Below the pieces are notes generated by a model. It did not search any database, was not told the origin of the DNA, and worked only from the letters and a program-made list of their open reading frames with translations. From contig CAILLM010000009.1 in NCBI GenBank assembly GCA_903835075.1, positions 25,274-89,273 of the forward strand: a stretch of 64,000 nt of DNA. The letters are read 5' to 3'. This DNA comes from Candidatus Staskawiczbacteria bacterium. Its GTDB lineage: Bacteria; Patescibacteriota; Minisyncoccia; Minisyncoccales; Staskawiczbacteraceae. Positions 6,662 through 61,625 of the stretch are shown here, one piece after another. A program made the position numbers and the translations under genes. The stretch's first letter is position 1. The number at the start of each line of letters is the position of its first letter.

Positions 6662-7895
6662 TAAGGCATTAACACAATCTATAAAGGCGCTGTCTGCGAA
6701 TCCTGTTCGTACGTTTTTAACTACTTTGGGAATTATGATTGGTATTGCAACAGTTATAACGGTTTTATCAGCTGGAGCAGGATTTAGAAGTTTAATAAAT
6801 GATGAAATAAAATCTTTGGGAAGTGATACTTTATTTATAAAAACGCGAGTCCCTCCTACAATAAAAAACAGGGCATCAACTTTAACTCCTGGAATTGCAG
6901 TTGGGATTACAACTTTTGTGCAAAGAGATTTAGATGATATTAAAAAACTAAACAATGTTACCAATGATTACGGAATGGTGACAGGAATGGCTATTGCTGG
7001 TTACCGCGACAACCAAAAAAATACTATTTATTTTGGATCTTCTGCAGAAAGATTTTCAATTGACCAGCACACTTTGAAAGAAGGGAGATTTTACACGCAA
7101 GCTGAGGATACGGGAGCCGCCCAAGTTGCAATTTTGGGAAGTAATATTGCAAAAAATTTATTTGTACAAGATGATCCTCTTGGAAAATTAGTTCACTTAG
7201 GAAATTTGAATTTTTTGGTGATTGGAGTATATGATGTTCAGGGATCTGTGGGCGGGCAGGGAGCAGATGATTCAATTTATGTGCCACTAGGGACTGCTCA
7301 GAAAAAAATGTTGGGAGTAAATTATATTACAGTAGCGGTTGTACAATTAAAAAATACAAATTTAGCTGATGCAACAGCTGCTCAAATTGCTTTAACCCTA
7401 GAACAAAATCATAACATTACAAACCCTGAAAAAAATGATTTCATTATCATGACGCAGGCGCAAGTTTTAGACATTTATAACACCATTTTTAATGGCATAA
7501 CAATTTTGTTAATTGCTATTGCATCAATTTCTTTGATTGTGGGTGGAGTAGGAATTATGAATATTATGTATGTGGTTGTTACTGAAAGAACAGCAGAAAT
7601 AGGGTTAAAAAAATCAGTTGGAGCAACCAATTCAGATATTTTAAAAGAATTTTTAATTGAATCTATTTTGGTAACTGTATTGGGGGGAGTTATCGGAATT
7701 TTATTGGGAACTTTATTAAGTTGGCTGGTTGCTGTTGTTGCAACAGCAAATGGTTTGACTTGGACGTTTACGGTACCCTTGTATGCAATTATAATTGCAG
7801 TGGGAGTTTCAGCTGCTATAGGAATTTCTTTTGGTGTCTTGCCAGCGAGGTCTGCAGCTAAATTAGACCCCATTGAAGCATTGCGTTACGAATAG
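6654..7895 (+). CDS. second ABC transporter permease (MacB/FtsX-like)
   Basis: 413 aa paralogue of the previous gene with the same architecture, ending DPIEALRYE. It has an 8-nt overlap with the upstream gene. Confidence 0.85.
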   Translation: MNSKALTQSIKALSANPVRTFLTTLGIMIGIATVITVLSAGAGFRSLINDEIKSLGSDTLFIKTRVPPTIKNRASTLTPGIAVGITTFVQRDLDDIKKLNNVTNDYGMVTGMAIAGYRDNQKNTIYFGSSAERFSIDQHTLKEGRFYTQAEDTGAAQVAILGSNIAKNLFVQDDPLGKLVHLGNLNFLVIGVYDVQGSVGGQGADDSIYVPLGTAQKKMLGVNYITVAVVQLKNTNLADATAAQIALTLEQNHNITNPEKNDFIIMTQAQVLDIYNTIFNGITILLIAIASISLIVGGVGIMNIMYVVVTERTAEIGLKKSVGATNSDILKEFLIESILVTVLGGVIGILLGTLLSWLVAVVATANGLTWTFTVPLYAIIIAVGVSAAIGISFGVLPARSAAKLDPIEALRYE

Positions 7896-7920: not shown

Positions 7921-8012
7921 CGCTCGGCAATAAACTTTTTTCCGATGCAGGTTACCCCCTTTGCCTCTACGGGCAAGTGGACCTGGGTCTACAAAAAGTT
8001 CATTGCCTCGCT
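7921..8012. repeat. long-hairpin repeat element, copy A
   Basis: Starts CGCTCGGCAATAAACTTTTT and ends AAAAAGTTCATTGCCTCGCT. The ends are imperfect inverted repeats shared with copy B at 15498..15575. The interior is GC-rich and self-complementary. Confidence 0.6.
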
Positions 8013-8020
8013 TAAATAAA

Positions 8021-8644
8021 ATGTACAAATTTAAATTTAAAAAATCATCAGGGCAAGCGTCAAAATTGCTTTTAGTTTTGGCGGTTGTTATTTTAGTGGC
8101 AGTAATTATTACTTTTTTAGTATTAAAAATGGCAGAAAAGCCAGCAGCTCCTGTAGCTCCTGTAGTCCAAACAATTCCACTTCCAGTTTACGAAAAACAA
8201 CTTGGTAATATTGATTTTATTTTTGAGTCTGCAATTGATAGGGGGCAGGTTTTAAAAGCTTCTGAAATTTTGAATAATTTATACGCAACTCATAGGGACT
8301 ATGTTATAGACAACCCCGGAGCTAAATTTATTCAAGTAACAATTGGTGCTCAAAATATGGGCACTATGAACACAAGCCAGGGGGCATGGATTATGCAAAA
8401 TATTGTTGATTCTAAAAATAGAGAGTTTGTTCCTTTAGATGGATTTAACATTAGTCCGTGGCTTCCTACTAATAATTCTTGCGGCGAATTGTTAAAGCCT
8501 GCATTTGACCCAACACCATGTACTAAAATTTATGAAGTTTCTAAAGAGTCTGCGGGGTTGAAAGTGAGGGTTGAAACCGGCAAAGATAATAGTCCCTCAT
8601 CTAGTAAAAAAGACACATTCTTAATAGATTTAATAGTTAAATAA
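8021..8644 (+). CDS. membrane-anchored hypothetical protein
   Basis: The ORF track starts at TTG 7961, inside the hairpin repeat. The first ATG (8021, MYKFKFKK) precedes a TM helix (LLLVLAVVILVAVIITFLVL). No recognised domain. Confidence 0.5.
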   Translation: MYKFKFKKSSGQASKLLLVLAVVILVAVIITFLVLKMAEKPAAPVAPVVQTIPLPVYEKQLGNIDFIFESAIDRGQVLKASEILNNLYATHRDYVIDNPGAKFIQVTIGAQNMGTMNTSQGAWIMQNIVDSKNREFVPLDGFNISPWLPTNNSCGELLKPAFDPTPCTKIYEVSKESAGLKVRVETGKDNSPSSSKKDTFLIDLIVK

Positions 8645-8648
8645 TAAC

Positions 8649-9071
8649 ATGTCAATTCAAGATAAAAGTGACGAAATAAAAGCTCCAGAAAAAGTTTCTG
8701 CAGAGCAAGAACAAGCAGTGCACTTTAAGCAGGAACACGAAAGAATTGTAGAGAAAAAAGAAAATGTTGATGACAAAATTATTTCAGCTGAGCTGAGAAG
8801 AGAAATAGAAATGATGGAATTAGATCCTGTTAATGCAAAAGCTGTAGAAGTTGAAAAAGAAAAAATAGAATATTTGGGAGAAAAAGAAAAAATAGAGCAC
8901 CTTTTGAGCATGGCCAGACAGAAAGGAATGGTTTTTGCAGTACAACTTGCAAAAAAAATGAATGAGCCATATTTATTGGATCTTTTGCACGATGTATTAG
9001 CAAAAGAAGGATTTTATCTAAAAATGCAAGCAACTACAACAGACGACGACAGTAATAATAAAAAAACTTAG
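8649..9071 (+). CDS. acidic coiled-coil hypothetical protein
   Basis: 140 aa, Glu/Lys-rich, tightly spaced between neighbouring genes. No recognised motif. Confidence 0.45.
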   Translation: MSIQDKSDEIKAPEKVSAEQEQAVHFKQEHERIVEKKENVDDKIISAELRREIEMMELDPVNAKAVEVEKEKIEYLGEKEKIEHLLSMARQKGMVFAVQLAKKMNEPYLLDLLHDVLAKEGFYLKMQATTTDDDSNNKKT

Positions 9072-9091
9072 AATTATGAAATTATAAATCT

Positions 9092-11566
9092 ATGCCCATA
9101 ATTATCCCAGGTCTTATTTTAGTTTTTTTGCTCATTGTTTTGGCTTTTATTATAGTTTTAAATGCTGAAACAAATGAAAAAAATGCTGTTTTTGGCGGGC
9201 TGGAGATGGTTTTATTTTTGGTGATGATGCCAAAAAATGCTTCTAAAAAAGAAGAAGAAGCAAAAAAAGAAGAGAAAAAAATAATATCTCAAATGGAGCA
9301 GGTATTTGCTAATTTTCTTTATTTAAAAAAAACTAAAGCTTTCCAAACTCCACCTGCTTGCGCCTTTGAAATTGCTTCTCAAATTGGAGGCTCAGATATC
9401 TCTTTTTATGTAGCAGTTCCAAAATATTTAGAATCGGTTTTTGAAAAATATGTACAAGGTGTTTATCCAAATGCTGTAGTTGATAAAGTTCCACAAGATT
9501 ATACAATATTTGAACCGCAAGGAGCTACTGCTGCTGCTTATTTGCAACTATCACAAAGCTCCCTTTTTCCAATAAGCACTTATCAGAATTTAGAAACAGA
9601 TCCCTTAGCATTAGTAACAAATAATTTAAGTAAAATTGCAACCAACGAAGGTGGGGCAGTGCAGGTGATAATTAGGCCATTGTCTAAATTAAATTTAAGA
9701 AAAAAAGGTGAGAAAGCTTTAAAAAAAATGCGAGAAGGAAAGCCAGTTAGAATTGCGGTTGCGGAAGCTTCTCATGGTCATGTAATGGAAGGGCTCCAAG
9801 AAGCATGGAACACCTTGTCGGGAAAAAGTTTGAAGAAAAAAGAAGAAGAAGCAGGGTTGCGAGATCCCGCTCAGCAAAAATTTGACCAAAAAGATTACGA
9901 GGCTATTCAAAGTAAAATTCAAAAACAACCATTCGAAACAAACATAAGAATTGTTTCCTACGCCCAAACGCAAGATAGAGCAGAAGAAATTTTGGGGCAC
10001 TTAACATCTGCTTTTAGTCAATTTTCTTTATCAGCCATAAACAGTTTAGAGCCCAAAGAAGTTCGCGGTAAGGAATTGCAAAAATTAATTTATGATTATA
10101 GCTTTAGAAATTTTAATATTACGCAATCAAATGTTTTAAATTTAGAAGAATTGGCAAGCGTTTATCACTTTCCAACGCAATATATAGAAACTCCATATAT
10201 TAAAGCAGCTAAATCAGCTACTTTTGCTCCGCCAACAAATTTACCAGAAAAAGGAGAAATAATTATTGGAAAAGTTTCTTACAGAAATGAAGAAAAGAAA
10301 GTTTATTTTGCAGATAAAAAAGATAGAAGAAGACATTTATATGTTGTTGGGCAAACTGGTGTTGGTAAGTCTGTATTTATGGAAGGTATGATTTTGCAAG
10401 ATATTATAAATGGCGAGGGTGTGGCAGTTGTTGATCCACATGGTGATATTATAGAACACATTTTAGCTAACATTCCGAAAGAAAGAGTTGACGATGTTGT
10501 TATGTTTGAACCCTTTGACATTGAAAGGCCATGCGGTTTGAATATGTTAGAATATGACAGCCCCGAACAAAAAGATTTTGCAGTGCAAGAAATGATTGCC
10601 ATATTTATGAAGCTTTTTCCGCCAGAAATTATTGGTCCAATGTTTGAGCACTACATGAGAAACGCCATGTTGGCACTTATGGCTGACAAAGATAACCCAG
10701 GCACACTTGTTGAAATTCCAAAAATGTTTACAGACCCAAGCTTTTTACAACAAAGAATGGCAAAAGTTACAGATCCTGTTGTGCGAAGTTTTTGGGTAAA
10801 AGAATGGGCACAAACAACAGGCTCTACAAGATCTGATATGTTGGGTTATGTTGTTTCAAAGCTTGGCAGATTTATTGAAAACGAAATGATGCGAAATATT
10901 ATTGGGCAATCGCACTCTGGTTTTGATTTAGCTCAAATAATGGATACTAAAAAAATATTTTTAGCTAATTTGTCTAAAGGTTTAACTGGTGAAGTAAATA
11001 GTTCTTTGTTGGGTTTAATTTTAATTTCAAAAATTCAAATGGCAGCAATGAAACGCGCACGCGTGCCCGAAGAACAAAGAGTCGATTTTTATTTATATGT
11101 TGACGAGTTTCAAAATTTTACAACAGATTCAATTGCCACAATTTTGTCTGAAGCCCGAAAATATAAATTGAATTTAATTATGGCTCACCAATATATGCCA
11201 CAATTAAAAGAAGAAATTCGCGATGCAGTGTTAGGAAACGTTGGAACAATTGGGGCATTTAGAATTGGAGCAGAAGATGCAGAAAATTTGGAAAAGCAAT
11301 TTGAGCCAGGGTTCTCAAGGTTTGATTTGGTAAATTTAGATAACTTTTCAATGATAATAAAAATGATGATTGATAATAAAATCTCAACACCGTTTAAAAT
11401 GAATACCTTGCCAATGCCAAAAGGAAAGCCCGAACTTGCTGAAGCAATTAAAAAAATATCAAAGTTAAAATATTCGCGCGCTAAGGCAATTGTTGAAGAA
11501 GAAATTACTAGCCGTTCATTTGTTGATTTGCCACCAGCCCCACCACCAATAGCGCCGTTGAAATAA
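9092..11566 (+). CDS. membrane-anchored P-loop ATPase of the FtsK/HerA/TraD-VirD4 (coupling-protein-like) kind
   Basis: 824 aa. N-terminal TM helix, Walker A VVGQTGVGKS, Walker B FYLYVDEFQNF, about 400 aa of unassigned sequence before the ATPase core. Confidence 0.65.
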   Translation: MPIIIPGLILVFLLIVLAFIIVLNAETNEKNAVFGGLEMVLFLVMMPKNASKKEEEAKKEEKKIISQMEQVFANFLYLKKTKAFQTPPACAFEIASQIGGSDISFYVAVPKYLESVFEKYVQGVYPNAVVDKVPQDYTIFEPQGATAAAYLQLSQSSLFPISTYQNLETDPLALVTNNLSKIATNEGGAVQVIIRPLSKLNLRKKGEKALKKMREGKPVRIAVAEASHGHVMEGLQEAWNTLSGKSLKKKEEEAGLRDPAQQKFDQKDYEAIQSKIQKQPFETNIRIVSYAQTQDRAEEILGHLTSAFSQFSLSAINSLEPKEVRGKELQKLIYDYSFRNFNITQSNVLNLEELASVYHFPTQYIETPYIKAAKSATFAPPTNLPEKGEIIIGKVSYRNEEKKVYFADKKDRRRHLYVVGQTGVGKSVFMEGMILQDIINGEGVAVVDPHGDIIEHILANIPKERVDDVVMFEPFDIERPCGLNMLEYDSPEQKDFAVQEMIAIFMKLFPPEIIGPMFEHYMRNAMLALMADKDNPGTLVEIPKMFTDPSFLQQRMAKVTDPVVRSFWVKEWAQTTGSTRSDMLGYVVSKLGRFIENEMMRNIIGQSHSGFDLAQIMDTKKIFLANLSKGLTGEVNSSLLGLILISKIQMAAMKRARVPEEQRVDFYLYVDEFQNFTTDSIATILSEARKYKLNLIMAHQYMPQLKEEIRDAVLGNVGTIGAFRIGAEDAENLEKQFEPGFSRFDLVNLDNFSMIIKMMIDNKISTPFKMNTLPMPKGKPELAEAIKKISKLKYSRAKAIVEEEITSRSFVDLPPAPPPIAPLK

Positions 11567-11859
11567 AATAAGATATTGGTATAATTATAACTAATGAATA
11601 ATCGTAATCAAAAAATTTTTCTTGCCACTTTAATTATAGGGGCCATATTTATTGGCATTTTTTTTATGCCGATTCCGGTAGCTCACGCCATAGATGATAA
11701 CACTCCTCCACAGTTAATTTCTTTTACATCTACTACTCCAGATGGAATGTATTTTTACAATGGTTCTATTAATATAACAGCAAATTTTGATGAAGATTTG
11801 TGCGATCCTTCATCTATGACTATTGTTTTAGATAATGGAGAATCGGTTGTTCTTTCTAT

Positions 11860-11866
11860 GGGGGGG
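11860..11866 (+). repeat. homopolymeric G7 tract at the frameshift point
   Basis: tctatgggggggagac; the longest G run I noticed in this AT-rich window. Confidence 0.9.
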
Positions 11867-12476
11867 AGACCTAAATACCCTGTCTGGGACATACAGTCCT
11901 CAAAAGGCCTCAAGCGCGCACCTTACAGTATCTTCTATTTCTGAAGTTCTGGTTACAGACTGCGACACTATTCCAAATACGAAGACAAATTATTTAGTTC
12001 CCAGTACGCCAAATAATCTCGGTGATACCTCTAGCATAGTTATAGATATCTATCCAAAAGTTATTTCATTTACATCTACTACTCCAGACGGCACTTATGG
12101 AGCAGGAGCTTCGATAAATATTACAGCAAATTTTGATAAGGCCTTAGATCCAAACACAGTTCCTTTTATGAATGTTCATTTGAATGTCAATGGAGTGGTG
12201 GTAGCCCTTGATCATCTTTCTGGTAGCAGTCTTTCTGGGACATACATCGTTCAAGATGGAGACTATTCTGCTAGTAAGCTTGCAGCTTCTTATAGTGATT
12301 ATTTTTCTGGAATACAAGATCTTTTTGGCGGTGGTGACCCAAATTTTCTGGAAGATTTCGGTAGTATTGAAAATAATTTAAATTATGCGAACAATATATT
12401 AATAGATGGTGTAGCTCCAGTATCGATTTCTGGGGGTATAGATGGTAATAATATAACGCTTTATTATAATAAAGCG

Positions 12477-12848
12477 TTAGACGTAAGTTCTGTTCCATCA
12501 ACTGGAGATTTTACAGCTTATATAAATGGTTCTCCGGTATCAATAAGTGGTGTTAGTGTTACGGTAAATACCATTGTATTACATTTAGAAGCTGGGGTTG
12601 TTAGTGCGTCCGACGTGGTTTATGTAGATTATGTTCCTGGAGAGCATTTAGTAAAAGATACTTTGGGAAATCAATCGACGCAATCTTTTTCAGAATTCAA
12701 TATAGTAAATAATAGCGTTATTTTATCTAATGCTACCATATCAAATGAGGACATTTCTCTTTTGTATAGCAAGGCCTTAGACGTAAGTTCTGTTCCATCA
12801 ACTGGAGATTTTACAGCTTATATAAATGGTTCTCCGGTATCAATAAGT
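12477..12848 (+). repeat. intragenic 300-bp-period domain repeat with a 72-nt identical core
   Basis: 12477..12548 is identical to 12777..12848 (ttagacgtaagttctgttccatcaactggagatttt...caataagt). It encodes LDVSSVPSTGDFTAYINGSPVSIS twice. Confidence 0.9.
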
Positions 12849-14876
12849 AGTGTTAGCATCACAGGTAACACCGTGGTGTTGCATCTTGCAAACCATGTGT
12901 CTTCGTTAGATGTAATTACTCTTGATTACGCTCCAACATCTAATATTATAAAAGATCAATCTGGAGTAGTGGTATCATCATTATCCGGACAAGACGTGAC
13001 AAATCATATAGGTGCAGCTATTTCGACGATTTCTTCTTCATTGGTATCACAAACTTCTAATTTTTTTACTAACGTGGGTTCATCGTCTTCTTTTTCTAAT
13101 TCGGCAGGAATGGTTTCTAATGGAAATTACATATATGTGACGCTAGGCAGTATTATGAAAATTTATGATATTTCTGGTCGTAATCCTTATTTAGTGAACT
13201 CTATTACAGTTGGTGAAGATGCAGAGAGAGCAGTGATAGCTGGGAACTACTTATATATGGCAGAGGGAACTAGTGATCAATTCCAAATATTTGATATTAC
13301 AATCCCCGTATCTCCAGTGTTATTAAGCACTACAAGCGTTGGTGGCCATGCTGAGGGAATGGATATCGATAGGAATTTTTTAATTATAACTAATTATGGA
13401 CTTAATCGCGTGCAAGTGTATGACGTAGTAAATCCTATGTCACCTTCTTTTGTTGGACAAGTGAGTACGTTTTCTTTGCCGGCTGGTGGCGTATTTTCCA
13501 ATAATCACTATTGGATAAATAGCGACGTAACAGGAGAGTCATCTATTGAATCAATTGCTATCTCTGATAACGGCACCCCCACACTTGATGGGCAAATAAC
13601 AATATCTGGAGCCGGTGGATTCTCAAATGAAATATCTGGAGATTATTTGTATACGCTTGATGATAACAGTTTCAATGGCGGAGACTATTTAAAGGTTTGG
13701 AATATTTCAAACCCTAGTAGTCCTAGTTTTGTTGGATCAGTTGATACTGGCGCCGGGAATGTAAATAATAGAGGGGTGATTGTTTTAGGAGATTATGCTT
13801 TTGTCGCGAATGGGGCTCATTTGCTTCAAGCTTATGATATTTCAACTCATGGTAACCCAGTTTTGATAAAGAGATTGTCACTTATTGATAATTCATTGAA
13901 CGGTGGCGCGCAAATTCTAAGTTCTGGAAATGAAATGTATGTTTTAAATAGAGGGCTTCTATATCATTTTACCACTAATTCTACGCCTGCTTTTTCGGCA
14001 ACCATAACATGGGCTACCGACCGCGCAACAGATTCAAGGATAAATTTTGGACCAACTGCTTATTATGGCGACACAATTTATTTTCCTAGCTTAGTCACGA
14101 ATCACTCAGTTGTTTTACCTGATTTATTAGCCGATACTACTTATCATTATCAAGTAGTCTCCACATATCAATTTGGTGACATTAGTACGTCGGATGATTA
14201 TACTATGAAAATTAATATTTTATCAAATAATGCCGCTGTTACTTCTTCGGTCTACACGGTTAGCTCTTTAACCAATAACGCTGGAACAATTACTAACGTT
14301 CCATATGGAACTTCTAAAGCTACATTTGAGACAGCAATATCCAAAGGAGAAGTCAATCAAACATGGAACGACTCAGGCGTAGCCAACACAGTGGTAACTG
14401 GAAATACTTTAGTAGTTACCGCACAAGACGGTTCAACGACAGCAATATACACAATCACGGTTAATGCTGCTCCTGGAGGAGGAAGTGGTGGAGGTGGTAG
14501 AATTTTCGTGCCACCAGTAATTGATAGAATTTTAACCATTCCCGCTTTAGAAAATGAAATAAAAAAGCTCCAGAATTTGATTCAACAGCTGTTGAATCAA
14601 AAAGAAAATCCATCGGGAGCCATTTTAACTAAAGATTTAAAGCTCGGTGATGTAGATGAACAAGCTAAAATATTACAACAATTTTTAAATACTCACGGAT
14701 TTGTGCTAGCCAAAACTGGCGTTGGTTCTCTTGGTTTCGAAACAACAAAATTTGGCTATGCAACTCAAGCATCATTAAAAAAGTTTCAACGCTTAAATGG
14801 AATAATTTCTAGCGGAAAATTAGGGCCAGTTACAAGAGATTTAATTAATAAAATTATAAAATCAGGTACCTAGAAA

Positions 14877-14906
14877 TAAAAAAGCGGGGGAATTGGCCCC
14901 GCTTTT
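14877..14906. terminator. bidirectional terminator between convergent genes
   Basis: AGCGGGG-gaattgg-CCCCGCT stem flanked by an A-run and a T-run. Confidence 0.8.
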
Positions 14907-14926
14907 TAGTTGTATAAGTTTTGTAA

Positions 14927-15487
14927 TTATGCGCGTTTTACGTAGGTTCCGGTTTCGGTGTTAACCTCAATAACGTCTCCTTCTTCTATAAATAATGGAA
15001 CCTGTATAACTGCTCCCGATTCCAAAATTGCTTCTTTTGTTCCGCCTTGAGCGCGGTCACCCTTAACTCCTGGGGCTGATTCTTTGATTATTAATTGAAC
15101 TTTTATTGGCAACTTAAAGGTAATAATTTTACCTTCAAATAAAATTCCCATTACAGGTTCATTTGGTTTTAAATATTTTGCTTGTGGGCCAATGTGGTCT
15201 TCTTCAAAAGAAAATCTATTTGATGGATCTTTAATGTCGCAGAAAAAATATTGTCCTTTTGTTTGGTATAAAAATTTAATATCTTTTTTTTCTAAATCAG
15301 CTTCATTAAAAACATCACCTTGTTGGAAGCTCTGTTCTTGAACTCTGCCATCAACCAAATTTCTAATTTTAGTTCTAATAACTGGTCGTCTTTGAGCCAT
15401 TTTCATTGAGTTGGCATCTAAGACTTCCCAAGGTTGACCCTCATAAATAAATTGAACTCCTGGTTTTAAATCTGTGTGTGTAAGCAT
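14927..15487 (-). CDS. efp: elongation factor P
   Basis: 186 aa; aligns by eye to bacterial EF-P along its full length (DLKPG..., KIRNLVDGRVQEQSF...). Confidence 0.9.
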   Translation of the reverse strand: MLTHTDLKPGVQFIYEGQPWEVLDANSMKMAQRRPVIRTKIRNLVDGRVQEQSFQQGDVFNEADLEKKDIKFLYQTKGQYFFCDIKDPSNRFSFEEDHIGPQAKYLKPNEPVMGILFEGKIITFKLPIKVQLIIKESAPGVKGDRAQGGTKEAILESGAVIQVPLFIEEGDVIEVNTETGTYVKRA

Positions 15488-20178: not shown

Positions 20179-21498
20179 ATGAAAAAGATAATCATAATTT
20201 TTGCGATTGTTGCTATCCTTGTATTAGGAATTGGTGGAAGTTATTTGATGTCATATTTTTTTTCCGGCACTAATTATGCCAGTATTTTTTCGTCGATAAT
20301 TAATACTAAGCCATCTATTCTTGTACTTAAATCAAGTTTTTTTAAGAATGATCCAATCGCAGTAAGCATAGCAAAAGGGAATGATTATCTTCTAAGCGAT
20401 TCCTTTGAGCATATTAATAGTTTTGAGTTTAAATTATTAAGCGCATTTAAGCAATTAGGTTTTGTAGGGCTAGGATACAGCGCTTATGATGGACAATCTC
20501 CGGTTAGTGGAGCTGTAAACTATTTTAGAAAAATTCATAGTATTCGGGCATCAAATTATCTTGATAAAAAAACCTTAGAGTTTCTAGATAAGGAGCTTGC
20601 ACAGAGAGAGATCAATGATAAAAAAGTTGCAACAACATATCCTCCATTTTCTAAATTTATGGATAGCCCTATTAATGAGCCACCTAAAGAACATCTTGCG
20701 ATGTTACTTGCTGGATTATTTGGGTCTTTGCCAAAAAATATCACAAGTTTTGAGGGATGTCATAATGTTTGGACGGTTGAAGAATTTAGAGATAGCTTAT
20801 CGTATGGTCTTGGGGGGAATTTAGGTAGATTTATTAGTGAAGATTCAACTAGATATCTTACGCCTCAAGAGTATAATGATTTGATATCAAACAATCAAAC
20901 AGATTTTAAATACTGTAATGATTTATATTATTCTGCTAATCAGCTAGATAATTGCTTAACCCCCGCCCTACATGTGAATACGCAGATTATGAGCGACTTT
21001 GATTATATTTATACTGTCACGCACGAATTCGGACATTCTGTTGCTTTTAATAGTGATAATTTAACTGATGTCAGTAAACCCAGTGGAATTTGTCTATTTG
21101 GTGGCATTTCTTTTGTTATGGATTCTTCCTGCCCTGCGGGACATGTTAGCATTTCTGATAAAAAGCGTGTAGATAATAACGGCGAATTTATTAGTGAATA
21201 TGCTAAAACTAATCAAGATGAGGACTTTGCAGAATCTTTTTCTGCTTACGTACTTGCTGGAGATGTCTTTAGAGAGAGAGCAAAAAGCAATTCATATTTA
21301 AAGCAAAAATACGATTTTTTGAAAAACAATGTCTTTGATAAAAGAGAATTTGATACAGGTGGTTTGGAACGTTATGAGCTTTGGAATTCAAAACATAATA
21401 GTTTACCAAATGTTGTGCGAGATTACTTCACCCAAGAGTCTAGCTGGGTATGGGATTACAAATATAATATATTAAAACAGAGTAAATGGTTTTTCTAA
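20179..21498 (+). CDS. membrane-anchored putative zinc metalloprotease
   Basis: 439 aa with an N-terminal TM helix and an HExxH motif (THEFGHSV). Confidence 0.45.
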   Translation: MKKIIIIFAIVAILVLGIGGSYLMSYFFSGTNYASIFSSIINTKPSILVLKSSFFKNDPIAVSIAKGNDYLLSDSFEHINSFEFKLLSAFKQLGFVGLGYSAYDGQSPVSGAVNYFRKIHSIRASNYLDKKTLEFLDKELAQREINDKKVATTYPPFSKFMDSPINEPPKEHLAMLLAGLFGSLPKNITSFEGCHNVWTVEEFRDSLSYGLGGNLGRFISEDSTRYLTPQEYNDLISNNQTDFKYCNDLYYSANQLDNCLTPALHVNTQIMSDFDYIYTVTHEFGHSVAFNSDNLTDVSKPSGICLFGGISFVMDSSCPAGHVSISDKKRVDNNGEFISEYAKTNQDEDFAESFSAYVLAGDVFRERAKSNSYLKQKYDFLKNNVFDKREFDTGGLERYELWNSKHNSLPNVVRDYFTQESSWVWDYKYNILKQSKWFF

Positions 21499-46118: not shown

Positions 46119-46424
46119 ATGAAAAATATATTTAAAAATTACGCAGACTATTTTAAAGATAACCCACATGGTTATTGGTTCAGAAAAAAGCTTTATGGGT
46201 GGGGGTGGACGCCCGTAACGTGGCAGGGGTGGCTTGTTGTGGGTGTATATATTCTATGTATTACCTTATTTGCTTTTACAATAGATGAAAACTCACCACC
46301 AAACGAATTGATGTTTACGTTTTTTCTTCCTATCGCTTTACTAACGGCCGTGCTTATTCGCATAGCATACAAAAAAGGTGAAAAGCCAAGCTGGCAGTGG
46401 GGGCCACCTAAGAAAGACAAATAA
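46119..46424 (+). CDS. small two-TM membrane protein
   Basis: 101 aa with two hydrophobic helices and a Trp-rich N-terminus. Confidence 0.45.
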   Translation: MKNIFKNYADYFKDNPHGYWFRKKLYGWGWTPVTWQGWLVVGVYILCITLFAFTIDENSPPNELMFTFFLPIALLTAVLIRIAYKKGEKPSWQWGPPKKDK

Positions 46425-46485
46425 ATTATATAAATTATATCGCTACGCTAAAAAATTTAAAAAATTAACAGTAAAAATTTTCGAT

Positions 46486-46848
46486 ATGGATGAAGAAGAA
46501 ATAAAAAATAAATTAACTCCAGAGCAATACAAAGTTTTAAGGGAGAAGGGGACAGAAGTCCCTTTTACGGGGAAATATGTGCACAAAACAGAAAATGGAA
46601 ACTATGTTTGCATGGTGTGTGGCAACCTTTTATTTTCATCTGATGCTCAATTTGATTCTGGCACTGGCTGGCCGAGTTTTGATAAGCCCATTGAAGGGTC
46701 GGTTGAATATAAAGATGACCACGGAGCAACCGAGATAATTTGTTCAAACTGTAAATCTCATTTGGGGCATGTTTTTAATGATGGCCCAACAGAAACGGGA
46801 AAGAGATATTGTATAAATTCAGTTTGTTTAAACTTAAAAAATAAATAA
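46486..46848 (+). CDS. msrB: peptide-methionine (R)-S-oxide reductase
   Basis: Start moved to MDEEEIKNKLTPEQYKVLREKGTE. CMVC...CSNC zinc Cys pairs and the RYCINS active site. Confidence 0.9.
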   Translation: MDEEEIKNKLTPEQYKVLREKGTEVPFTGKYVHKTENGNYVCMVCGNLLFSSDAQFDSGTGWPSFDKPIEGSVEYKDDHGATEIICSNCKSHLGHVFNDGPTETGKRYCINSVCLNLKNK

Positions 46849-54386: not shown

Positions 54387-57338
54387 TTATTTTGATAGTT
54401 TTTTAACTGCTTCTACAAACTGCCTGCCCCTGTCAAATTCATTTTTAAAGAGATTAAAACTTGCAGCTCCTGGCGAAAGAATAACGACATCTCCTTTTTT
54501 AGATAATTTTTTAGCTTCTTTTACAGCTTCTTGCATTGAAAAAACTTCGTGCATTCGTGTGTATCCTTGCATGTGTTTTTTTATTTCATCAGATGCTGTG
54601 CCTGGAAGCATTATTATTTCATCTACTTTTTCTCTAATTATTTTAGCCATTTCATTATATTTTAATCCTTTATTCTGCCCACCACAAATCAAAATTAATC
54701 GTGAATCTGGAAAATGCTCAAGAAAAACTTGAACTGTTATTATTGTGGCCTCTGGCGTGGTAGCGCTTGTGTCCTCAAAATATTTTACACCTTTTATTTC
54801 CCCTACTAGTTGTCGACTTGTTGAGATTTTTCCAAATTTTTTCACTAAAAATTTAAACTGATTTCCTTTTTCTTCAAAATTTTTCCAAAGAGTATAGCTT
54901 GGCGAAGCACAAGATAGCAGACATATTTTACCAGGCTTGGTATGTTCATAAGCAAAGATTATTGCATCTTCCATGCTTTCAGTTTGTAAAATATTTAATC
55001 CTTCTGTCGATTTAAATATTTTGGCACCGGTTTTAGGAAATAAAACAATATTTTTAATGCCAGATTTTTTAATTGTTTTTTCTAATTCAAAAAAATTATA
55101 TCCGCGATCCTCTCCTCCCAGAAAAATTGTATCAACGTTTTTTAAAGAATCAATGGCCAATATGGTTGATTCTGGCGTTGTTGAGATTGCATCATCATAA
55201 AACTTAATATTTTTAAATTCTCCTACAAGCTCAAGCCTGTGTGGCAATGGCTGGAACTTCTCAATTGCTATTTTTATTATTTTTTCTGAAATGTTAAGTT
55301 CTTTTGCAACAGAAATTGCAGCGCTTACGTTTTCTTTATTGTGTTCCCCAATTAGTGGTACGTGAATATTTTCAGAAAAATTTGTCTTTTCAAAAGAAAT
55401 ACATCTAGACTCTGTTTCGTTTGCCCATTCTCTTAAAATCTTACTATTGTTATTGTATATAAAAATATCATGATTGTTTTGAAAATTTATTATATTTTTC
55501 TTTGCCATATAATAGTTTTCAGCCCCATTGTGGTAATCCATGTGTTCTGGAAATAAAGTTGTAACTACCGCTATATTTGGCGAAAACTCTATGTCAGCTA
55601 ATTGATAGCTGGATAATTCCAATACAAAAATTTCTTTTTTATCAATGGGCTCTAGGAGGGCTTCAAGCATTGGATTTCCAATGTTGCCCAAAAGTCTAAC
55701 CTTTTTACCGGATTCCTTTAATATGGAATAAATTAATGAAGCAGTTGTTGACTTCCCCTTGCTTCCTGTTATTCCTATGATTGTATTCCCGCATTCTTTT
55801 ATTTTAGAAAAAAAGATATTAGTAGCAGTAGTATATGGGATTGTAATTAATTCCTTTTTTATTCCAGGAGTTTTTATCGCTAAGTCGTAATTTGTTTGTT
55901 TTTTTAAGTAGCTTTTTCCATTTTTTTCATCAGCAATATCTATTTTCAGATTAGGATATTCTTTTTCAATAAATTTTTGTGTTACCTTACCTTCTTTTCC
56001 ATAACCAATAATTAAAACGTTATCCATGCCAGAAAATCGGAATTGGCTTGGAACGTTTGGAGCTAGTTGTGTTTTAAACAAGTTTGTTACATCGTCTTTT
56101 TTTACGTTAACCTTGGGCCAAAGTGATTTAACTATAAAATCACTTTTAAATTTATCTCTTCCCAATATAAATGCTGTTTTTGATTCTTCAAAAGTCCCCA
56201 CGCAGTCAAATGGCTTCATTTCTCCTAGGCCAAAAATGTTTTTGAATAATGGCAAAAGACGTTCGTCTTCATACAGATTTTTTTTGAAAATATTTAATAA
56301 ATCTTTTTTTGTTAAAAAACCTGAAAGTAGCGTAAAGGAAAAAACACACTTTGGACAAGACCCGCACCAAAGACCATTTTTCTCTTCTTTTATTAATTTA
56401 AAGTTTTTATTACAACTTGAAAAATAAGGAAAATATTGGTTATATTGTGAAAATAATTTAGCAATGCGTAGTTCATAAAAAGGACGCACCAAAGAAAAGT
56501 ATTTTATATCTTTTGATATGCAATTATAAATATAATCGGAAAAAATATTTTCAAATTCAGAAGATTTTGACCACTGGTGATTTACAATTTTCCCTTTGTA
56601 TTCTGTATTTCCAAAATTACTGCTATATTCGTTTGCTACTACAAAATATGAATGTTTATTAAGAACAGAATAAAAAATTCCTAAAAATGCATATATCATA
56701 GAAATAGGTATATGGCCTTCATATTTGTGATTATCAAAGACCTGTTTATCTAGCACTCTTTTTATTTTCACAAAATCAATGTGCATTTTTTTAGCTAAAT
56801 CATCAACTAAAACAGATCCCCTGTTTGTTTCGGTAAACATTGCAGAAATTTTAAAGCCCTGTTTTTTTAATAATTCAGCGGCAACGATCGAGTCTTTTCC
56901 ACCAGAAAGAGCAACTAGGCAATTATTGTTTTGGGCTAAGGGGTATGTTTTGTCTTCTTTATTTTTGTTACAAGGGAATTTGGGTGATTTTTTAGGATCT
57001 AGTTTGTTTCTGAAATAAAATTCGCCCAGGCCTGCTTGATAAATTGTATTCCAAAAATTAGCTTCTTTTTTAGAGAGAATGTAATTAATTTTTACTTTTG
57101 GTGCACAATAAAATTTATAGTAACTTATTCCAATAGCTAAATGCAGACTTTCTAATAATTTTTTGATTAATTCTTCCGAGATATCTTTTGTATCCCAAAT
57201 TTTGGGCAATGTTATTGTCTCTGTGAAAAGTAAAGGATCTTTATTACTAAATTCTTGCTTGTAATTAAAGAGGATCTTTTTATTTTCGGGTTCGAACTTG
57301 TATGAGGTGAATTCAAAAATAGTTATTTTACTATCCAT
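54387..57338 (-). CDS. murD: fusion protein: PP-loop ATP-pyrophosphatase-like domain + complete MurD-like ligase + a second MurD C-terminal domain
   Basis: 983 aa. SGGKDS at residues 145-150 (nt 56889-56906). The MurD part runs from about residue 438 (NVLIIGYGKEG, GITGSKGKSTT, HRLELVGEF...LLSCASPSYTLWKNFEEKGNQF). A second C-domain runs from about residue 840 (RQLVGEIKGVKYFEDTSATTPEA...ILSPGAASFNLFKNEFDRGRQF). Confidence 0.8.
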   Translation of the reverse strand: MDSKITIFEFTSYKFEPENKKILFNYKQEFSNKDPLLFTETITLPKIWDTKDISEELIKKLLESLHLAIGISYYKFYCAPKVKINYILSKKEANFWNTIYQAGLGEFYFRNKLDPKKSPKFPCNKNKEDKTYPLAQNNNCLVALSGGKDSIVAAELLKKQGFKISAMFTETNRGSVLVDDLAKKMHIDFVKIKRVLDKQVFDNHKYEGHIPISMIYAFLGIFYSVLNKHSYFVVANEYSSNFGNTEYKGKIVNHQWSKSSEFENIFSDYIYNCISKDIKYFSLVRPFYELRIAKLFSQYNQYFPYFSSCNKNFKLIKEEKNGLWCGSCPKCVFSFTLLSGFLTKKDLLNIFKKNLYEDERLLPLFKNIFGLGEMKPFDCVGTFEESKTAFILGRDKFKSDFIVKSLWPKVNVKKDDVTNLFKTQLAPNVPSQFRFSGMDNVLIIGYGKEGKVTQKFIEKEYPNLKIDIADEKNGKSYLKKQTNYDLAIKTPGIKKELITIPYTTATNIFFSKIKECGNTIIGITGSKGKSTTASLIYSILKESGKKVRLLGNIGNPMLEALLEPIDKKEIFVLELSSYQLADIEFSPNIAVVTTLFPEHMDYHNGAENYYMAKKNIINFQNNHDIFIYNNNSKILREWANETESRCISFEKTNFSENIHVPLIGEHNKENVSAAISVAKELNISEKIIKIAIEKFQPLPHRLELVGEFKNIKFYDDAISTTPESTILAIDSLKNVDTIFLGGEDRGYNFFELEKTIKKSGIKNIVLFPKTGAKIFKSTEGLNILQTESMEDAIIFAYEHTKPGKICLLSCASPSYTLWKNFEEKGNQFKFLVKKFGKISTSRQLVGEIKGVKYFEDTSATTPEATIITVQVFLEHFPDSRLILICGGQNKGLKYNEMAKIIREKVDEIIMLPGTASDEIKKHMQGYTRMHEVFSMQEAVKEAKKLSKKGDVVILSPGAASFNLFKNEFDRGRQFVEAVKKLSK

Positions 57339-57430: not shown

Positions 57431-59692
57431 TTATGTTTCTGAAGAAAGACGTCTAAAAACTATGAAAAATAGAGATATTAAAACTAGCGCTACTAGAATC
57501 CATAGGTACCAGCGTTTTAAAAATTCCCAAAATCCAGAAGTTTGAGTAGCAGATGATACTGATGCGGTTGCTTGGTTGGGGTTAAGATTTATTGAAACAG
57601 AGTCGGACTGAAGGTTGCCAGAGGAATTGCTTGTTGCCATGGCCTGTTTTACAGATGTTGAAGTAAAGTTTTGTGTTTTTCCTTCAAATGTAACTGGTTT
57701 TGTATTATAAGGTGCAATAGAGCCCACATTTATTCCTGAAACAATATCCCCAGAAACAGGAATGCCTGCAATTTGTAAGTTCCCTAAAGATGTAATTTCG
57801 CTTGGAATATTAGCTGAAATCATTACATTATCAGCTTGTGTTGCTGAATTATTTGTTACAGTAACCATGAAATAGATTTGACCGTTAGGACCAACTTGGG
57901 CTGTTTTCTGCCACTGTGCTGAAGCAGGGTCTTGTTTGGTGAAAAAGGAAACTGCTAACCCATTAGGGTTTGTGTTTGTATTTATTTTACAATCTGCAGG
58001 ACAGCTAGAGTTGGTCTCTCCCAAAGTAGATTCGCACAACCCATTACCGCAACGAGCTTGTGTGCTTGTCGCACAATAAGAATTGTAATCAGCTGATCCT
58101 GTTGCGCAAGTAGATCCGTCACATTTTAATATGTTTGAGCACTTGCTACCCGAGCATGAATCAATGGTACAGCTATTGCTATCGGAACAATTTCTATATG
58201 TGCCCGTGTCTGCTCCTGTTGAGCTAAACCAATGCACAGAATTACCTGAGCAAGCTGTTCTGTAATAGGTTATGTAAGTGTTATTAATTGGTTGGACTGG
58301 TGGCAAAACAGGGTTTATTATGTAGTTTGCACACTGACCATATTGGCAAGTTTGCCCTCCGCCACAACTGGTGTATAAATCTTGTTGATTTCCGCACGAG
58401 TCATACCAGTAGGAGTAATTCCCAGTGCAAAGTTTGTATGCATGGTAAGTGCAGTTTCCATAGTAATTGTTGTAGTTATTATTTTGACAAGTATTGTTGT
58501 AGCATCCACTAGAGCAATATTGGGCTAAATCTTGCACAGTTCCACATGAGTCGTACCAGTAAAGATTATTCCCATTACATCTTTGATACGAATGGTAGGT
58601 ACAAGTATTATTATAGTTTAAACAAGAGTTGCCAGAACATCCGTTAACACAATATTGAATTAAGGCGCCTTGTGTTCCACATGAGTCGTACCAATAAAGG
58701 TTATTCCCTATGCATTGTTGTTGGTAATTTGCTGTACAATTTGTACCACAAGTCCCTATGTAGCTTCCCTGTGTTCCGCATGAATCATACCAATACATGC
58801 TATTACCCACACATCTTTGTTGGTAGTTTGCTGTACAGGTACTAGAACAGCTACCGCTAGAGCAAATTTGATTGCCCAAGCAAGTTGTTTGCAACTGAGG
58901 TATCATGGCACTTGAGCATGAGCTCAAAGAAGTTCCTGGATTGTTACAAGTGTATGTTTTATAGTTTTTATAAACACCATTTCCTTGGCAAAATGAGCTA
59001 CCAGTAATTCCATCAGCTCCACATTGTGAATTAGAGCTGCATGCAACAGCTACAGATGAACAGCTTCCATTAGAGCAAGTTTGATTTCCTGAGCAGGCAT
59101 TTTGTAATTGGGGTGTTACAACGCTAGTACATGAACTCAAAGATGTTCCTGGGTTGTTACAGGTGTATGTTTTATAGTTTTTGTAAACAGCGTTTCCTTG
59201 GCAAAATGAGCTACCAGTTATTCCATCGGTTCCACACTGCGCGTTGGCTGAGCATGCAACAGCCGTAGGAGGTGTTACTGTTGATCCACATGTTACTGTG
59301 CCAAGATAAGAGCCCGTGTTACAGGCATTTTCAATAGTCCAATATCCGGAGTTCCATACATAATTATGGTCATTTCCACAAGAAGTGTATTGATAGGATG
59401 TTTTTTGAATAAAAGCAGTATATGGTTTATCAAGCCCAAGTTGAGTATAATATTTTTCAGTTAATGCACAAAGCTTTGCAGCTACATCGGTTGTATTTCC
59501 AAAATGGTTATATGCTCCCAAGTTAAGGCCCTCTCCTGACGCTATTGTCCTGAATGAACTAGATGCACTAAGGTTAGTTCCAGAAAGAGTAATTTGTGAA
59601 GTAGCAAAAGCCGGGGAAGCCACCGCGTATGCTAAAACGACCATTAATGGTAAAAAGACTCCTGCAACAATTATTTTGTTGATTATTGTCAT
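57431..59692 (-). CDS. secreted Cys-rich modular surface protein with a C-terminal TM anchor
   Basis: 753 aa. Signal peptide, two 71-aa tandem modules, about five CxGNxxYWYDSCG modules, and a C-terminal hydrophobic helix plus RRLSSET tail. Confidence 0.6.
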   Translation of the reverse strand: MTIINKIIVAGVFLPLMVVLAYAVASPAFATSQITLSGTNLSASSSFRTIASGEGLNLGAYNHFGNTTDVAAKLCALTEKYYTQLGLDKPYTAFIQKTSYQYTSCGNDHNYVWNSGYWTIENACNTGSYLGTVTCGSTVTPPTAVACSANAQCGTDGITGSSFCQGNAVYKNYKTYTCNNPGTSLSSCTSVVTPQLQNACSGNQTCSNGSCSSVAVACSSNSQCGADGITGSSFCQGNGVYKNYKTYTCNNPGTSLSSCSSAMIPQLQTTCLGNQICSSGSCSSTCTANYQQRCVGNSMYWYDSCGTQGSYIGTCGTNCTANYQQQCIGNNLYWYDSCGTQGALIQYCVNGCSGNSCLNYNNTCTYHSYQRCNGNNLYWYDSCGTVQDLAQYCSSGCYNNTCQNNNYNNYYGNCTYHAYKLCTGNYSYWYDSCGNQQDLYTSCGGGQTCQYGQCANYIINPVLPPVQPINNTYITYYRTACSGNSVHWFSSTGADTGTYRNCSDSNSCTIDSCSGSKCSNILKCDGSTCATGSADYNSYCATSTQARCGNGLCESTLGETNSSCPADCKINTNTNPNGLAVSFFTKQDPASAQWQKTAQVGPNGQIYFMVTVTNNSATQADNVMISANIPSEITSLGNLQIAGIPVSGDIVSGINVGSIAPYNTKPVTFEGKTQNFTSTSVKQAMATSNSSGNLQSDSVSINLNPNQATASVSSATQTSGFWEFLKRWYLWILVALVLISLFFIVFRRLSSET
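58841..59263 (-). repeat. 213-bp tandem duplication inside the Cys-rich protein gene
   Basis: AVACSANAQCGTDGITGSSFCQGNAVYKNYKTYTCNNPGTSLSSC... is repeated as AVACSSNSQCGADGITGSSFCQGNGVYKNYKTYTCNNPGTSLSSC... (residues 144-214 and 215-284). Confidence 0.85.
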
Positions 59693-59770
59693 ATTTTTAT
59701 GATTTTATGTTATTCTAAACGCTATAATATTTTATATTAAATGTCAATATTAAACATTGCATTAAAAACT

Positions 59771-60490
59771 TTATTGTAGAACTGCTTGAACTGTAATTCT
59801 CTGATAGTCTTTTCCTGGTGGCCAGCAACTAATTAGTGTTAAAACATTGCTATTTGCTGAAGATGCGTCTGCTGGTACGTCTGCGCCTCTTTTGATAATG
59901 GTTTTTTGTTTAACAATGTATGTGTATTGTTTGTTGTTTAAGTCTATTAAAATTTGATCGCCCGCTGATAATTTATCTAAGTTTGTGAAAACCCAATCAT
60001 GCTTTATTGTTGGCCATCCTGGAGGAGCTGAGTGTCCCAAAATTACAATTTGACCAACTTGCCCAGGATATACTGACCCTGGGTAATAAACTGTTCCCAA
60101 ATCTAGGTCTTTGGCTAGGGCAGTTTTATTAGTGCTTGTTGCAAATATGATTGGAACAGAAATGGATATTTTGGGTATTTCTATAGTATTTTGTTTGTCT
60201 GTATAATTTGTTTTTGTAGCTTGTACTATTGGAGCCGTTTTTGGGTCAGATATTATTACAGCGGGCGTTTGTTGGCCTGCCTGCGCAGGCAGGCTATGAT
60301 TTGGATAAAAATAAGTGTCTATTGTAGAGGCATCTATTGAAGGATATGGATTAAAAAAATCGCTTATTAGGCCCGAAACTTCTTTGTAATTAAAAACCCA
60401 TGAAACATCACTCCAGTTTATAATCAAAAAACTTGCTAAATAAATTAACACAGCCACTTTTAAAATTTTTTTAGCGGATTTTTTTTCCAT
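59771..60490 (-). CDS. sortase family transpeptidase
   Basis: N-terminal TM, catalytic-type ILGHSAPP, TLISCWP (TLxTC) and a downstream conserved Arg (QRITVQA). Confidence 0.8.
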   Translation of the reverse strand: MEKKSAKKILKVAVLIYLASFLIINWSDVSWVFNYKEVSGLISDFFNPYPSIDASTIDTYFYPNHSLPAQAGQQTPAVIISDPKTAPIVQATKTNYTDKQNTIEIPKISISVPIIFATSTNKTALAKDLDLGTVYYPGSVYPGQVGQIVILGHSAPPGWPTIKHDWVFTNLDKLSAGDQILIDLNNKQYTYIVKQKTIIKRGADVPADASSANSNVLTLISCWPPGKDYQRITVQAVLQ

Positions 60491-60497
60491 GGTTGGA

Positions 60498-61556: not shown

Positions 61557-61625
61557 ATTTTTATATATTTAATTATATAATAATTAAACTACTTTGTCAA
61601 TAGCAAGAGGTTTTTTTACCTTATG

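Follow-up and report, generated by a model that had tools for sequence, protein, structure and literature searches.

Does a run of seven guanines that interrupts a large surface-protein gene mark a genetic switch, an error of sequencing or assembly, or a gene that has only recently been lost? This question is raised by a locus at 11594–14873 on the forward strand of a 64,000-nucleotide stretch of Candidatus Staskawiczbacteria DNA (contig CAILLM010000009.1; the whole stretch is hereafter called the window), in which a homopolymer of seven guanines (G7) shifts the reading frame by one position. A first-pass annotation of this DNA had described one exported surface protein of ~1,090 amino acids (aa) that is broken at G7 and restored by six guanines (G6), and had offered phase variation or an assembly error as the cause. 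The alignment of homologues, the register of the internal modules, and the Pfam domains agree with the first part of this description: The gene is predicted to encode a Sec-exported, peptidoglycan-anchored giant surface protein of ~1,090 aa. With respect to the cause, we arrive at a different reading, to which we assign a probability of roughly 55%: G7 arose by a recent slippage insertion and represents a young loss-of-function allele, that is, a nascent pseudogene that could still revert. As such, the finding is a fresh instance of the well-known homopolymer frameshift.

One Gene in Two Reading Frames

The locus comprises two open reading frames (ORFs) that overlap by 110 nt around the homopolymer. 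ORF1 (11594–11944, forward strand; 116 aa) contains the signal peptide, the first half of a module that we call module 1, and 25 out-of-frame residues followed by a stop codon. ORF2 (11835–14873, forward strand; 1012 aa) lies in the +1 frame relative to ORF1 and carries the body of the protein: the second half of module 1, module 2, two SWM repeats, an LVIVD β-propeller region, an FN3-like domain, and PG_binding_1 (the peptide ASSAHLTVSSISEVLVTDCDTIPNTK is an example from its product). The two frames meet at the junction tctatGGGGGGGagac, in which the homopolymer occupies positions 11860–11866 of the forward strand; its context, GTT CTT TCT ATG GGG GGG AGA CCT, is read as ATG GGG GGG AGA in the frame of ORF1 and as TGG GGG GGA GAC in the frame of ORF2. 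Upon re-derivation, the coordinates and frames given by the first-pass annotation proved correct, and so did its statement that six guanines make the reading continuous. In fact, a change in tract length toggles an otherwise intact frame: Setting the tract in silico to G6 yields a single ORF of 1092 aa and setting it to G9 yields one of 1093 aa, whereas the G5, G8, and G10 versions stop after 92, 93, and 117 aa, so that the truncated products, including that of G7, span 92–117 aa. The tract covers codons 89–91, which corresponds to ~8% of the gene length, and is explained by Met-Gly-Gly codons plus one extra base.

The position of the break differs from the initial description, which placed the tract between signal peptide and body: The actual site is ~57 residues past the predicted cleavage site in the middle of module 1. 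The nearest intact homologues of the repaired protein, two Patescibacteria surface proteins with SwmB domains (P0002, 1673 aa, GCA_040384045.1; P0003, 1766 aa, GCA_034680565.1), align with its residues 5–190 without a gap at the junction. Like the focal protein, both have a signal peptide, N-terminal Ig-like modules of the type xSFTSxxxxG...INITANF, SWM repeats, a β-propeller region, and a C-terminal PG_binding_1, and they share 36–38% identity with it over the N-terminal 190–480 residues. Unlike the focal gene, they are intact, longer, and embedded in an unrelated genomic environment, and their corresponding codons contain no homopolymer; we take them as members of the same family and not as orthologues. 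In an alignment of five module sequences, invariant residues flank the break on both sides (L79, G82, and L87 before it; G98, Y100, S107, and L110 after it). Moreover, the repaired protein contains two modules of ~115 residues that start with xSFTSTTPDG...INITANFD, and one G has to be removed before the DNA register of module 1 relative to module 2 becomes divisible by three, which bears out the earlier observation that the repaired reading mirrors the next module. In an AlphaFold2 (AF2) model of the repaired N-terminus, the pLDDT amounts to ~88–90 at residues 61–100 (62.6 overall, with low values outside module 1), and the break at residues 89–92 is placed between strands 84–89 and 95–100 of a β-sandwich. 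According to this model, G7 splits a folded domain and not a boundary between signal peptide and body. Compared to the intact homologues, the frame is disrupted and the body is parted from its signal peptide, which is the configuration by which a pseudogene is recognized.

Recurrence of the Extra Base and Composition of the Window

The exact 1012-aa product of ORF2 (P0001) is found on 11 contigs in NCBI and ENA, and the 116-aa product of ORF1, or a variant of it that differs in one residue, is called on four. All six related contigs that are readable as DNA (L001–L006) carry G7: They originate from six assemblies (ERZ18625396, ERZ18626558, ERZ18626419, ERZ18624736, ERZ27313096, and ERZ27313067), cover at least four BioSamples, and comprise two naming styles (scaffold_ and k141_) as well as two haplotypes. 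The second haplotype (L005 and L006) is distinguished by one single-nucleotide polymorphism (SNP) at 11930 and likewise has G7. For the remaining contigs, the identical 1012-aa gene calls imply the same tract. With both products recurring across two haplotypes, the lesion is fixed at consensus level.

One of the six, L004, is a 999-bp MEGAHIT contig with 31 differences, all of which fall into its first 125 bp inside the ATPase gene that precedes the locus. Its positions 1–127 (window 11224–11348) are ~22% divergent, mostly at synonymous sites, and from 11349 on it is identical to the window; none of the fetched loci matches this head better than 83%. L004 thus represents either a recombination junction with a related lineage or a chimeric contig. 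Its interpretation as a 3% diverged strain with G7 was rejected: Since all differences reside in the ATPase head, L004 is not an independent lineage across the tract. Assemblies also break within the 5′ part of the gene, namely at 12041 (L005 and L006, both exactly, just before module 2), 12219 (L004), and 12233 (L002). These breaks downstream of the tract suggest strain-level variation or repeat-induced branching of the assembly graph.

No other split gene is present in the window, and two runs of G6 (7682–7687 and 20812–20817) and one of C6 (49548–49553) coincide with no frame break. A second candidate, consisting of the ORFs 46119–46424 and 46378–46848 (forward strand) around runs of G5 and A6, was rejected because MsrB (SelR) is complete in the second ORF. 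The first of the two, with 101 aa and no Pfam hit, overlaps the start of MsrB by 47 nt; the true MsrB start is uncertain.

The run length itself is unremarkable. The GC content of the window is 35.9% instead of the ~30% stated by the first-pass annotation, and the number of G runs declines geometrically with length (93 of G4, 15 of G5, two of G6, and one of G7). While G7 at 11860–11866 is the longest G/C run and the only one of at least seven nucleotides in 64 kb, about 0.6–0.8 matches of G7/C7 are expected in the window if bases are drawn independently. Dinucleotide-preserving shuffles contain 2.6 ± 1.9 such matches per window, with at least one in 87 of 100 shuffles, which contradicts the claim that G/C homopolymers are rare here: Chance alone would supply such a run in this window. 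The non-random feature is not the run but its coincidence with the sole frame break among the ~60 genes of the window.

The data on tract length are consensus sequences, a level at which minority variants within samples are invisible. At this level, no mixture of ON and OFF lengths is seen, as six of the six readable contigs have G7. Exact look-ups among ~15 billion proteins retrieved none of the products of G5, G6, G8, G9, and G10; P0001 is alone in its cluster at 90% identity, and the same collection holds no other match to the repaired protein above 37% identity. Among JGI metagenome contigs, none matched the flanks of the tract enclosing G4–G12. Within 1.36 Mb of Patescibacteria DNA, 16 G/C runs of at least seven nucleotides occur in total: Long ORFs contain six of them in frame, another eight are situated outside coding sequence or at the edge of a gene, one (L082) is marginal, and the focal run is the only clear break. 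A general habit of switch-like G tracts in genes is not apparent in these organisms. Some relatives contain longer runs of G8–G9 (L045, 14014–14022; L015, 17696–17704; L025, 12502–12509; L010, 3132–3139; L087, 2173–2180); the G9 of L045 is in frame in a long ORF, and the G8 of L025 lies between the genes for the ATPase and EF-P, which also flank the focal locus, and is possibly part of a terminator stem.

A Probable Young Loss-of-Function Allele

Apart from the inserted base, the gene retains its parts. No stop codon interrupts the 1012-codon ORF, and its domains can be recognized all the way to the C-terminal anchor. A putative σ70-type promoter with an extended −10 element (11558–11585, forward strand) precedes the gene: Its sequence, TTGAAA, 16 nt, and TG-n-TATAAT, is near consensus and, with 11 of 12 matches plus the TG, the best in 11300–15100. 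The −35 element shares positions with the final codons of the ATPase gene upstream. Because the −10 element ends 8 nt before the ATG, the mRNA of the surface protein may be leaderless or nearly so; a Shine–Dalgarno sequence is absent. Behind the stop codon, between the convergent genes of the surface protein and EF-P, we find a predicted bidirectional intrinsic terminator (14879–14907), a GC-rich hairpin of 11 pairs, six of them GC, with flanking A/T runs.

These features would be accounted for by the following course of events: An ancestral ATG GGG GGA (Met-Gly-Gly, a G6 by chance) would have gained one G by replication slippage, resulting in G7. Translation from the intact promoter and start would then end after 116 residues, with the lesion inside the first folded module. 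Because the 1012-codon body has neither a signal peptide nor a start context of its own, the protein would not be made. The G7 allele, now the consensus in every sampled assembly of a nearly clonal population, would be evolutionarily young given the lack of secondary lesions and the intact promoter and terminator, and a reversion by −1 or +2 slippage would be possible in principle. We thus infer G6 as the ancestral state, a null allele, and a nascent pseudogene rather than a selected switch. The state of ORF2 limits the age of such an allele: By our estimate, ~7% of random codons are stops at this base composition and ~1 in 20 coding substitutions creates a stop, and an unselected 3-kb ORF is expected to gain a stop within less than ~1% divergence. 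Since the 1012-codon ORF is open where random stops would soon be expected, either the lesion is young or the body is still selected. Only one half of the picture of a dead gene drawn by the first-pass annotation, G7 everywhere together with mutations downstream, corresponds to our data: G7 is indeed found everywhere at consensus level, and the downstream lesions are absent.

Several points speak against a young null allele and deserve attention. ORF2 has no secondary lesions at all, and the gene contains a sole polymorphism, 11930 A>T, which leaves the amino acid unchanged in the frame of ORF2 (GTA>GTT) and replaces it in that of ORF1. Both observations fit continued selection on the body, although almost nothing can be concluded from one SNP and a population this clonal does not permit a measurement of selection (dN/dS). 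Furthermore, all assemblies probably sample one population, in which case the recurrence of G7 backs the base call but neither the age nor the neutrality of the allele. Finally, a 7-nt G/C tract is able to switch reversibly in the absence of mismatch repair, as established for the 7C tract in glpK of M. tuberculosis, where it causes a reversible frameshift.[10.1101/717272]

Alternative Explanations

Gene callers list ORF1 and ORF2 separately, which would correspond to two functional genes, one for a small secreted protein and one for a large cytoplasmic protein. We consider this extremely unlikely: The homologues run continuously through the junction, the break cuts the β-sandwich between two strands, the final 25 residues of ORF1 are out-of-frame sequence, and the ATG of ORF2 is located inside ORF1 without a ribosome-binding site or signal peptide, yet the ORF encodes extracellular domains and a wall anchor. 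An artefact of sequencing or assembly, with G6 in the real genome, would be conceivable insofar as homopolymers are classical sites of indel errors and all contigs may come from one sequencing project, possibly even from the same read sets assembled anew. However, the presence of G7 in six contigs from six assemblies with two naming styles and two haplotypes, the identical frameshifted product on eleven contigs, and the fact that no other gene of the window is broken at a homopolymer, the G6 and C6 runs included, effectively refute the proposed assembly error at consensus level; the one-base insertion is genuine and an error very unlikely. Illumina reversible-terminator chemistry calls one base per cycle; if the reads are of this type, as we infer, most of them should not acquire an extra base at a run of seven nucleotides. 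The contig names suggest that the sequences may belong to the stratified-lakes dataset of Buck et al. (Illumina NovaSeq 2 × 150, MEGAHIT). A genuine G7 might still be bypassed during expression, either by slippage of the RNA polymerase on the tract, which would provide some G6 mRNA, or by a +1 shift of the ribosome on GGG-GGG, possibly via an unusual tRNA-Gly, so that a fraction of full-length protein would be produced from the G7 allele. Such recoding would fit the uniformity of G7 in all assemblies next to an intact downstream ORF and intact expression signals, and the +1 frame of ORF2 corresponds to the direction of a GGG-G slip; the position of ORF2 at +1 relative to ORF1 rules out a frameshift of −1. 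Nevertheless, recoding appears improbable, as AGA, the A-site codon that follows the tract, accounts for 49% of Arg codons, more than any other, and is therefore not slow, the upstream sequence GUUCUUUCUAUG has no Shine–Dalgarno-like element, the predicted folding of the 131 nt around the tract does not surpass that of shuffled sequences (z = +1.09), and no orthologue keeps the site. In addition, known recoding by transcriptional slippage in bacteria occurs at A/T runs of ~9 or more, of which G7 falls short. The sole tRNA in the window is a tRNA-Ala.

It remains to weigh a true contingency locus, in which slipped-strand mispairing would alternate between G6 or G9 (ON) and G7 or G8 (OFF); OFF would then have been favored in all samples so far, be it by phage escape or by modulation of host attachment, and rare ON cells would serve as a reservoir. 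The early position of the tract at 8% of the length, the restoration of a 1092- or 1093-aa ORF by a change of −1 or +2, a surface protein as the target, the intact body ORF, promoter, and terminator, and the synonymous nature of the lone SNP in the ORF2 frame all fit this idea, for which the glpK 7C tract of M. tuberculosis and InlA of Listeria constitute precedents. On the other hand, neither any assembly nor the 15 billion proteins contain a length variant, the tract does not exceed the lower limit of the usual lengths (G8–G11 in Campylobacter) and is expected by chance in the window, a second such tract is missing in 64 kb, frame breaks do not tend to coincide with G/C runs in the 1.36 Mb of relatives, and the ON state, at a length of only G6, would be poorly mutable. 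The comparison in relatives that the first-pass annotation had suggested leads to the same side: With the ATPase as anchor, 80 syntenic loci were identified, none of which contains a homologous surface protein, so that the tract has no orthologous counterpart for comparison. The corresponding positions of P0002 and P0003 are occupied by ordinary codons (GAA GGT GAT and TCC GGA ACT, respectively), which means that the tract is not conserved. Measured by length polymorphism at consensus level, conservation, and multiplicity, the locus does not group with the evolved contingency loci; as to a length beyond coding need, G7 is found at the low edge of the tracts known to switch. The phase-variation candidate proposed initially has gained no positive support. 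We therefore regard a switch by slipped-strand mispairing as doubtful; that the locus is a working poly-G contingency locus for a giant wall-anchored surface protein in a bacterium of the candidate phyla radiation (CPR), with the OFF phase dominant in these lakes, is a shade more doubtful still.

The comparison with known systems illustrates both the likeness and the distance. Like the glpK tract, the focal tract is a 7-nt G/C run in a coding sequence in which changes of ±1 inactivate or restore the gene; however, 7C is the in-frame ON state of glpK, variants of which were seen directly in isolates and during infection, whereas G7 is the OFF state of the focal gene, no variant has been seen, and the ON state would be only G6. 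The poly-G contingency loci of Campylobacter, Neisseria, and Haemophilus typically have G8–G11 or longer tracts, are present in many copies per genome, are polymorphic in every population, and mutate at 10−4 to 10−3 per division. The focal gene resembles them in that an intragenic poly-G near the 5′ end of a gene for a surface structure leaves one length class in three in frame, and differs in that its G7 is the single such tract in the window and uniform at consensus level. In Listeria monocytogenes, a frameshift in the 5′ poly(A) of inlA truncates InlA and can revert at raised frequency (Orsi et al. 2010, PMC2831843). Here, too, a short early homopolymer frameshift truncates a wall-anchored surface protein, but the inlA tract is poly(A), its reversion was measured experimentally, and independent origins were shown, while the focal tract is poly-G.

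The significance of the locus depends on which explanation applies. As a young null allele it is of little import: A lineage-specific accessory surface gene would have been lost by the commonest type of frameshift, and annotation pipelines will split it into two “hypothetical” entries of 116 and 1012 aa. If mixtures of G6 and G7 were real, ultrasmall, host-dependent CPR bacteria would vary their surface by slipped-strand switching, which would bear on host attachment and phage escape. The surface protein might plausibly serve an episymbiont in attaching to its host or be a receptor for phages. The literature that we searched contains no report on homopolymer-mediated phase variation in Patescibacteria/CPR, and the nearest case from the CPR is a gene with hypervariable 9-mer repeats in a Gracilibacterium; going by this literature, a true contingency locus would be the first example in this group.

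Architecture of the Repaired Protein

The start codon is followed by a predicted Sec signal peptide (residues 1–32; 11594–11689, forward strand), which consists of MNNRNQK, a hydrophobic core, and a cleavage site between AHA and IDD. The cleavage site was placed by eye; the signal peptide is further supported by a helix at residues 3–23 in the model and by its alignment with the N-termini of the intact homologues P0002 and P0003. It is succeeded by module 1, an Ig-like β-sandwich at approximately residues 37–152 (11702–12050, forward strand), as indicated by the alignment of P0002 and P0003 across the junction and by the AF2 model. An SWM (SwmB-type) repeat region with approximate limits of 12387–12974 (forward strand) matches Pfam PF13753 in two stretches (E = 1.2e-16; SWM_repeat, 61.1 bits at a cut-off of 27). 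Inside the two SWM repeats lies a direct repeat of 98 bp (12459–12556 and 12759–12856), the copies of which share 93% identity at a spacing of 300 bp and might allow repeats to be gained or lost in frame. Further downstream, the LVIVD-repeat β-propeller region (approximately 13035–13965, forward strand) is recognized by Pfam PF08309 (E = 4e-10; 39.3 bits at a cut-off of 20.2). The FN3-like domain is positioned N-terminal of PG_binding_1 (14658–14843, forward strand; Pfam PF01471, 27.6 bits at a cut-off of 23), which aligns with the C-termini of P0002 and P0003 and is likely to act as a cell-wall anchor.

Genomic Context

The upstream neighbor of the gene encodes an ATPase of 824 aa with T4SS-DNA_transf, DUF87, and TraG-like domains. 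Because this flanking ATPase is up to 84–87% identical to that of Candidatus Staskawiczbacteria relatives, the host can be regarded as an uncultivated freshwater Patescibacteria bacterium close to Ca. Staskawiczbacteria. The ATPase (with a membrane N-terminus and DUF8128/TraG/VirD4-like domains) forms a conserved unit at 7961–11566 (forward strand) together with two small genes in front of it, p207 and p140, for which no Pfam hits were obtained; this unit recurs in ~80 Patescibacteria loci at 44–87% identity, from Staskawiczbacteria to Uhrbacteria and Kerfeldbacteria. In ~25 relatives the gene order is kept as p207, p140, ATPase, a variable slot, EF-P (reverse strand), an HHH protein (reverse strand), LigT, and MurC. 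The comparison of the slot (window 11567–14926 vs L009–L035, L089, and L090) revealed that in most relatives EF-P follows 100–200 bp past the ATPase and the slot is empty. Elsewhere the slot contains unrelated cargo: a 1907-aa protein (L012), GlmS blocks (L023, L024, L028, and L035), a pilin-like N_methyl gene (L090), or a 175-aa ORF (L089). Outside the slot, the synteny of the flanks is rigid.

In the closest relative, the DNA homology ends with the ATPase gene and resumes at EF-P, and the loci of the closest ATPase relatives, P0027 (87%) and P0063 (which matches the head of L004), hold unrelated small genes in the slot. The exact ATPase is found only on the same 11 contigs as P0001, with the next relative being 87% identical, and a scan of GTDB species representatives returned no relatives of the surface protein. 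Because the 80 syntenic loci lack a homologue and the exact ATPase is confined to these 11 contigs, the gene appears to be a lineage-specific accessory cassette in a variable slot, dispensable and known from one nearly clonal population.

At a distance from the locus, two further observations concern cell-wall and surface genes of the window. In a 983-aa protein encoded at 54387–57338 (reverse strand), the two Mur ligase domains (middle and C-terminal) are confined to the part from residue ~520 on, and the N-terminal ~500 residues have no Pfam hit at E ≤ 1e-5. It is adjoined at 57431–63440 (reverse strand) by putative genes for surface or secreted proteins, namely one of 753 aa without a Pfam hit, a CAP-domain protein of 352 aa, and a Cadherin-like protein of 604 aa, all of which are intact.

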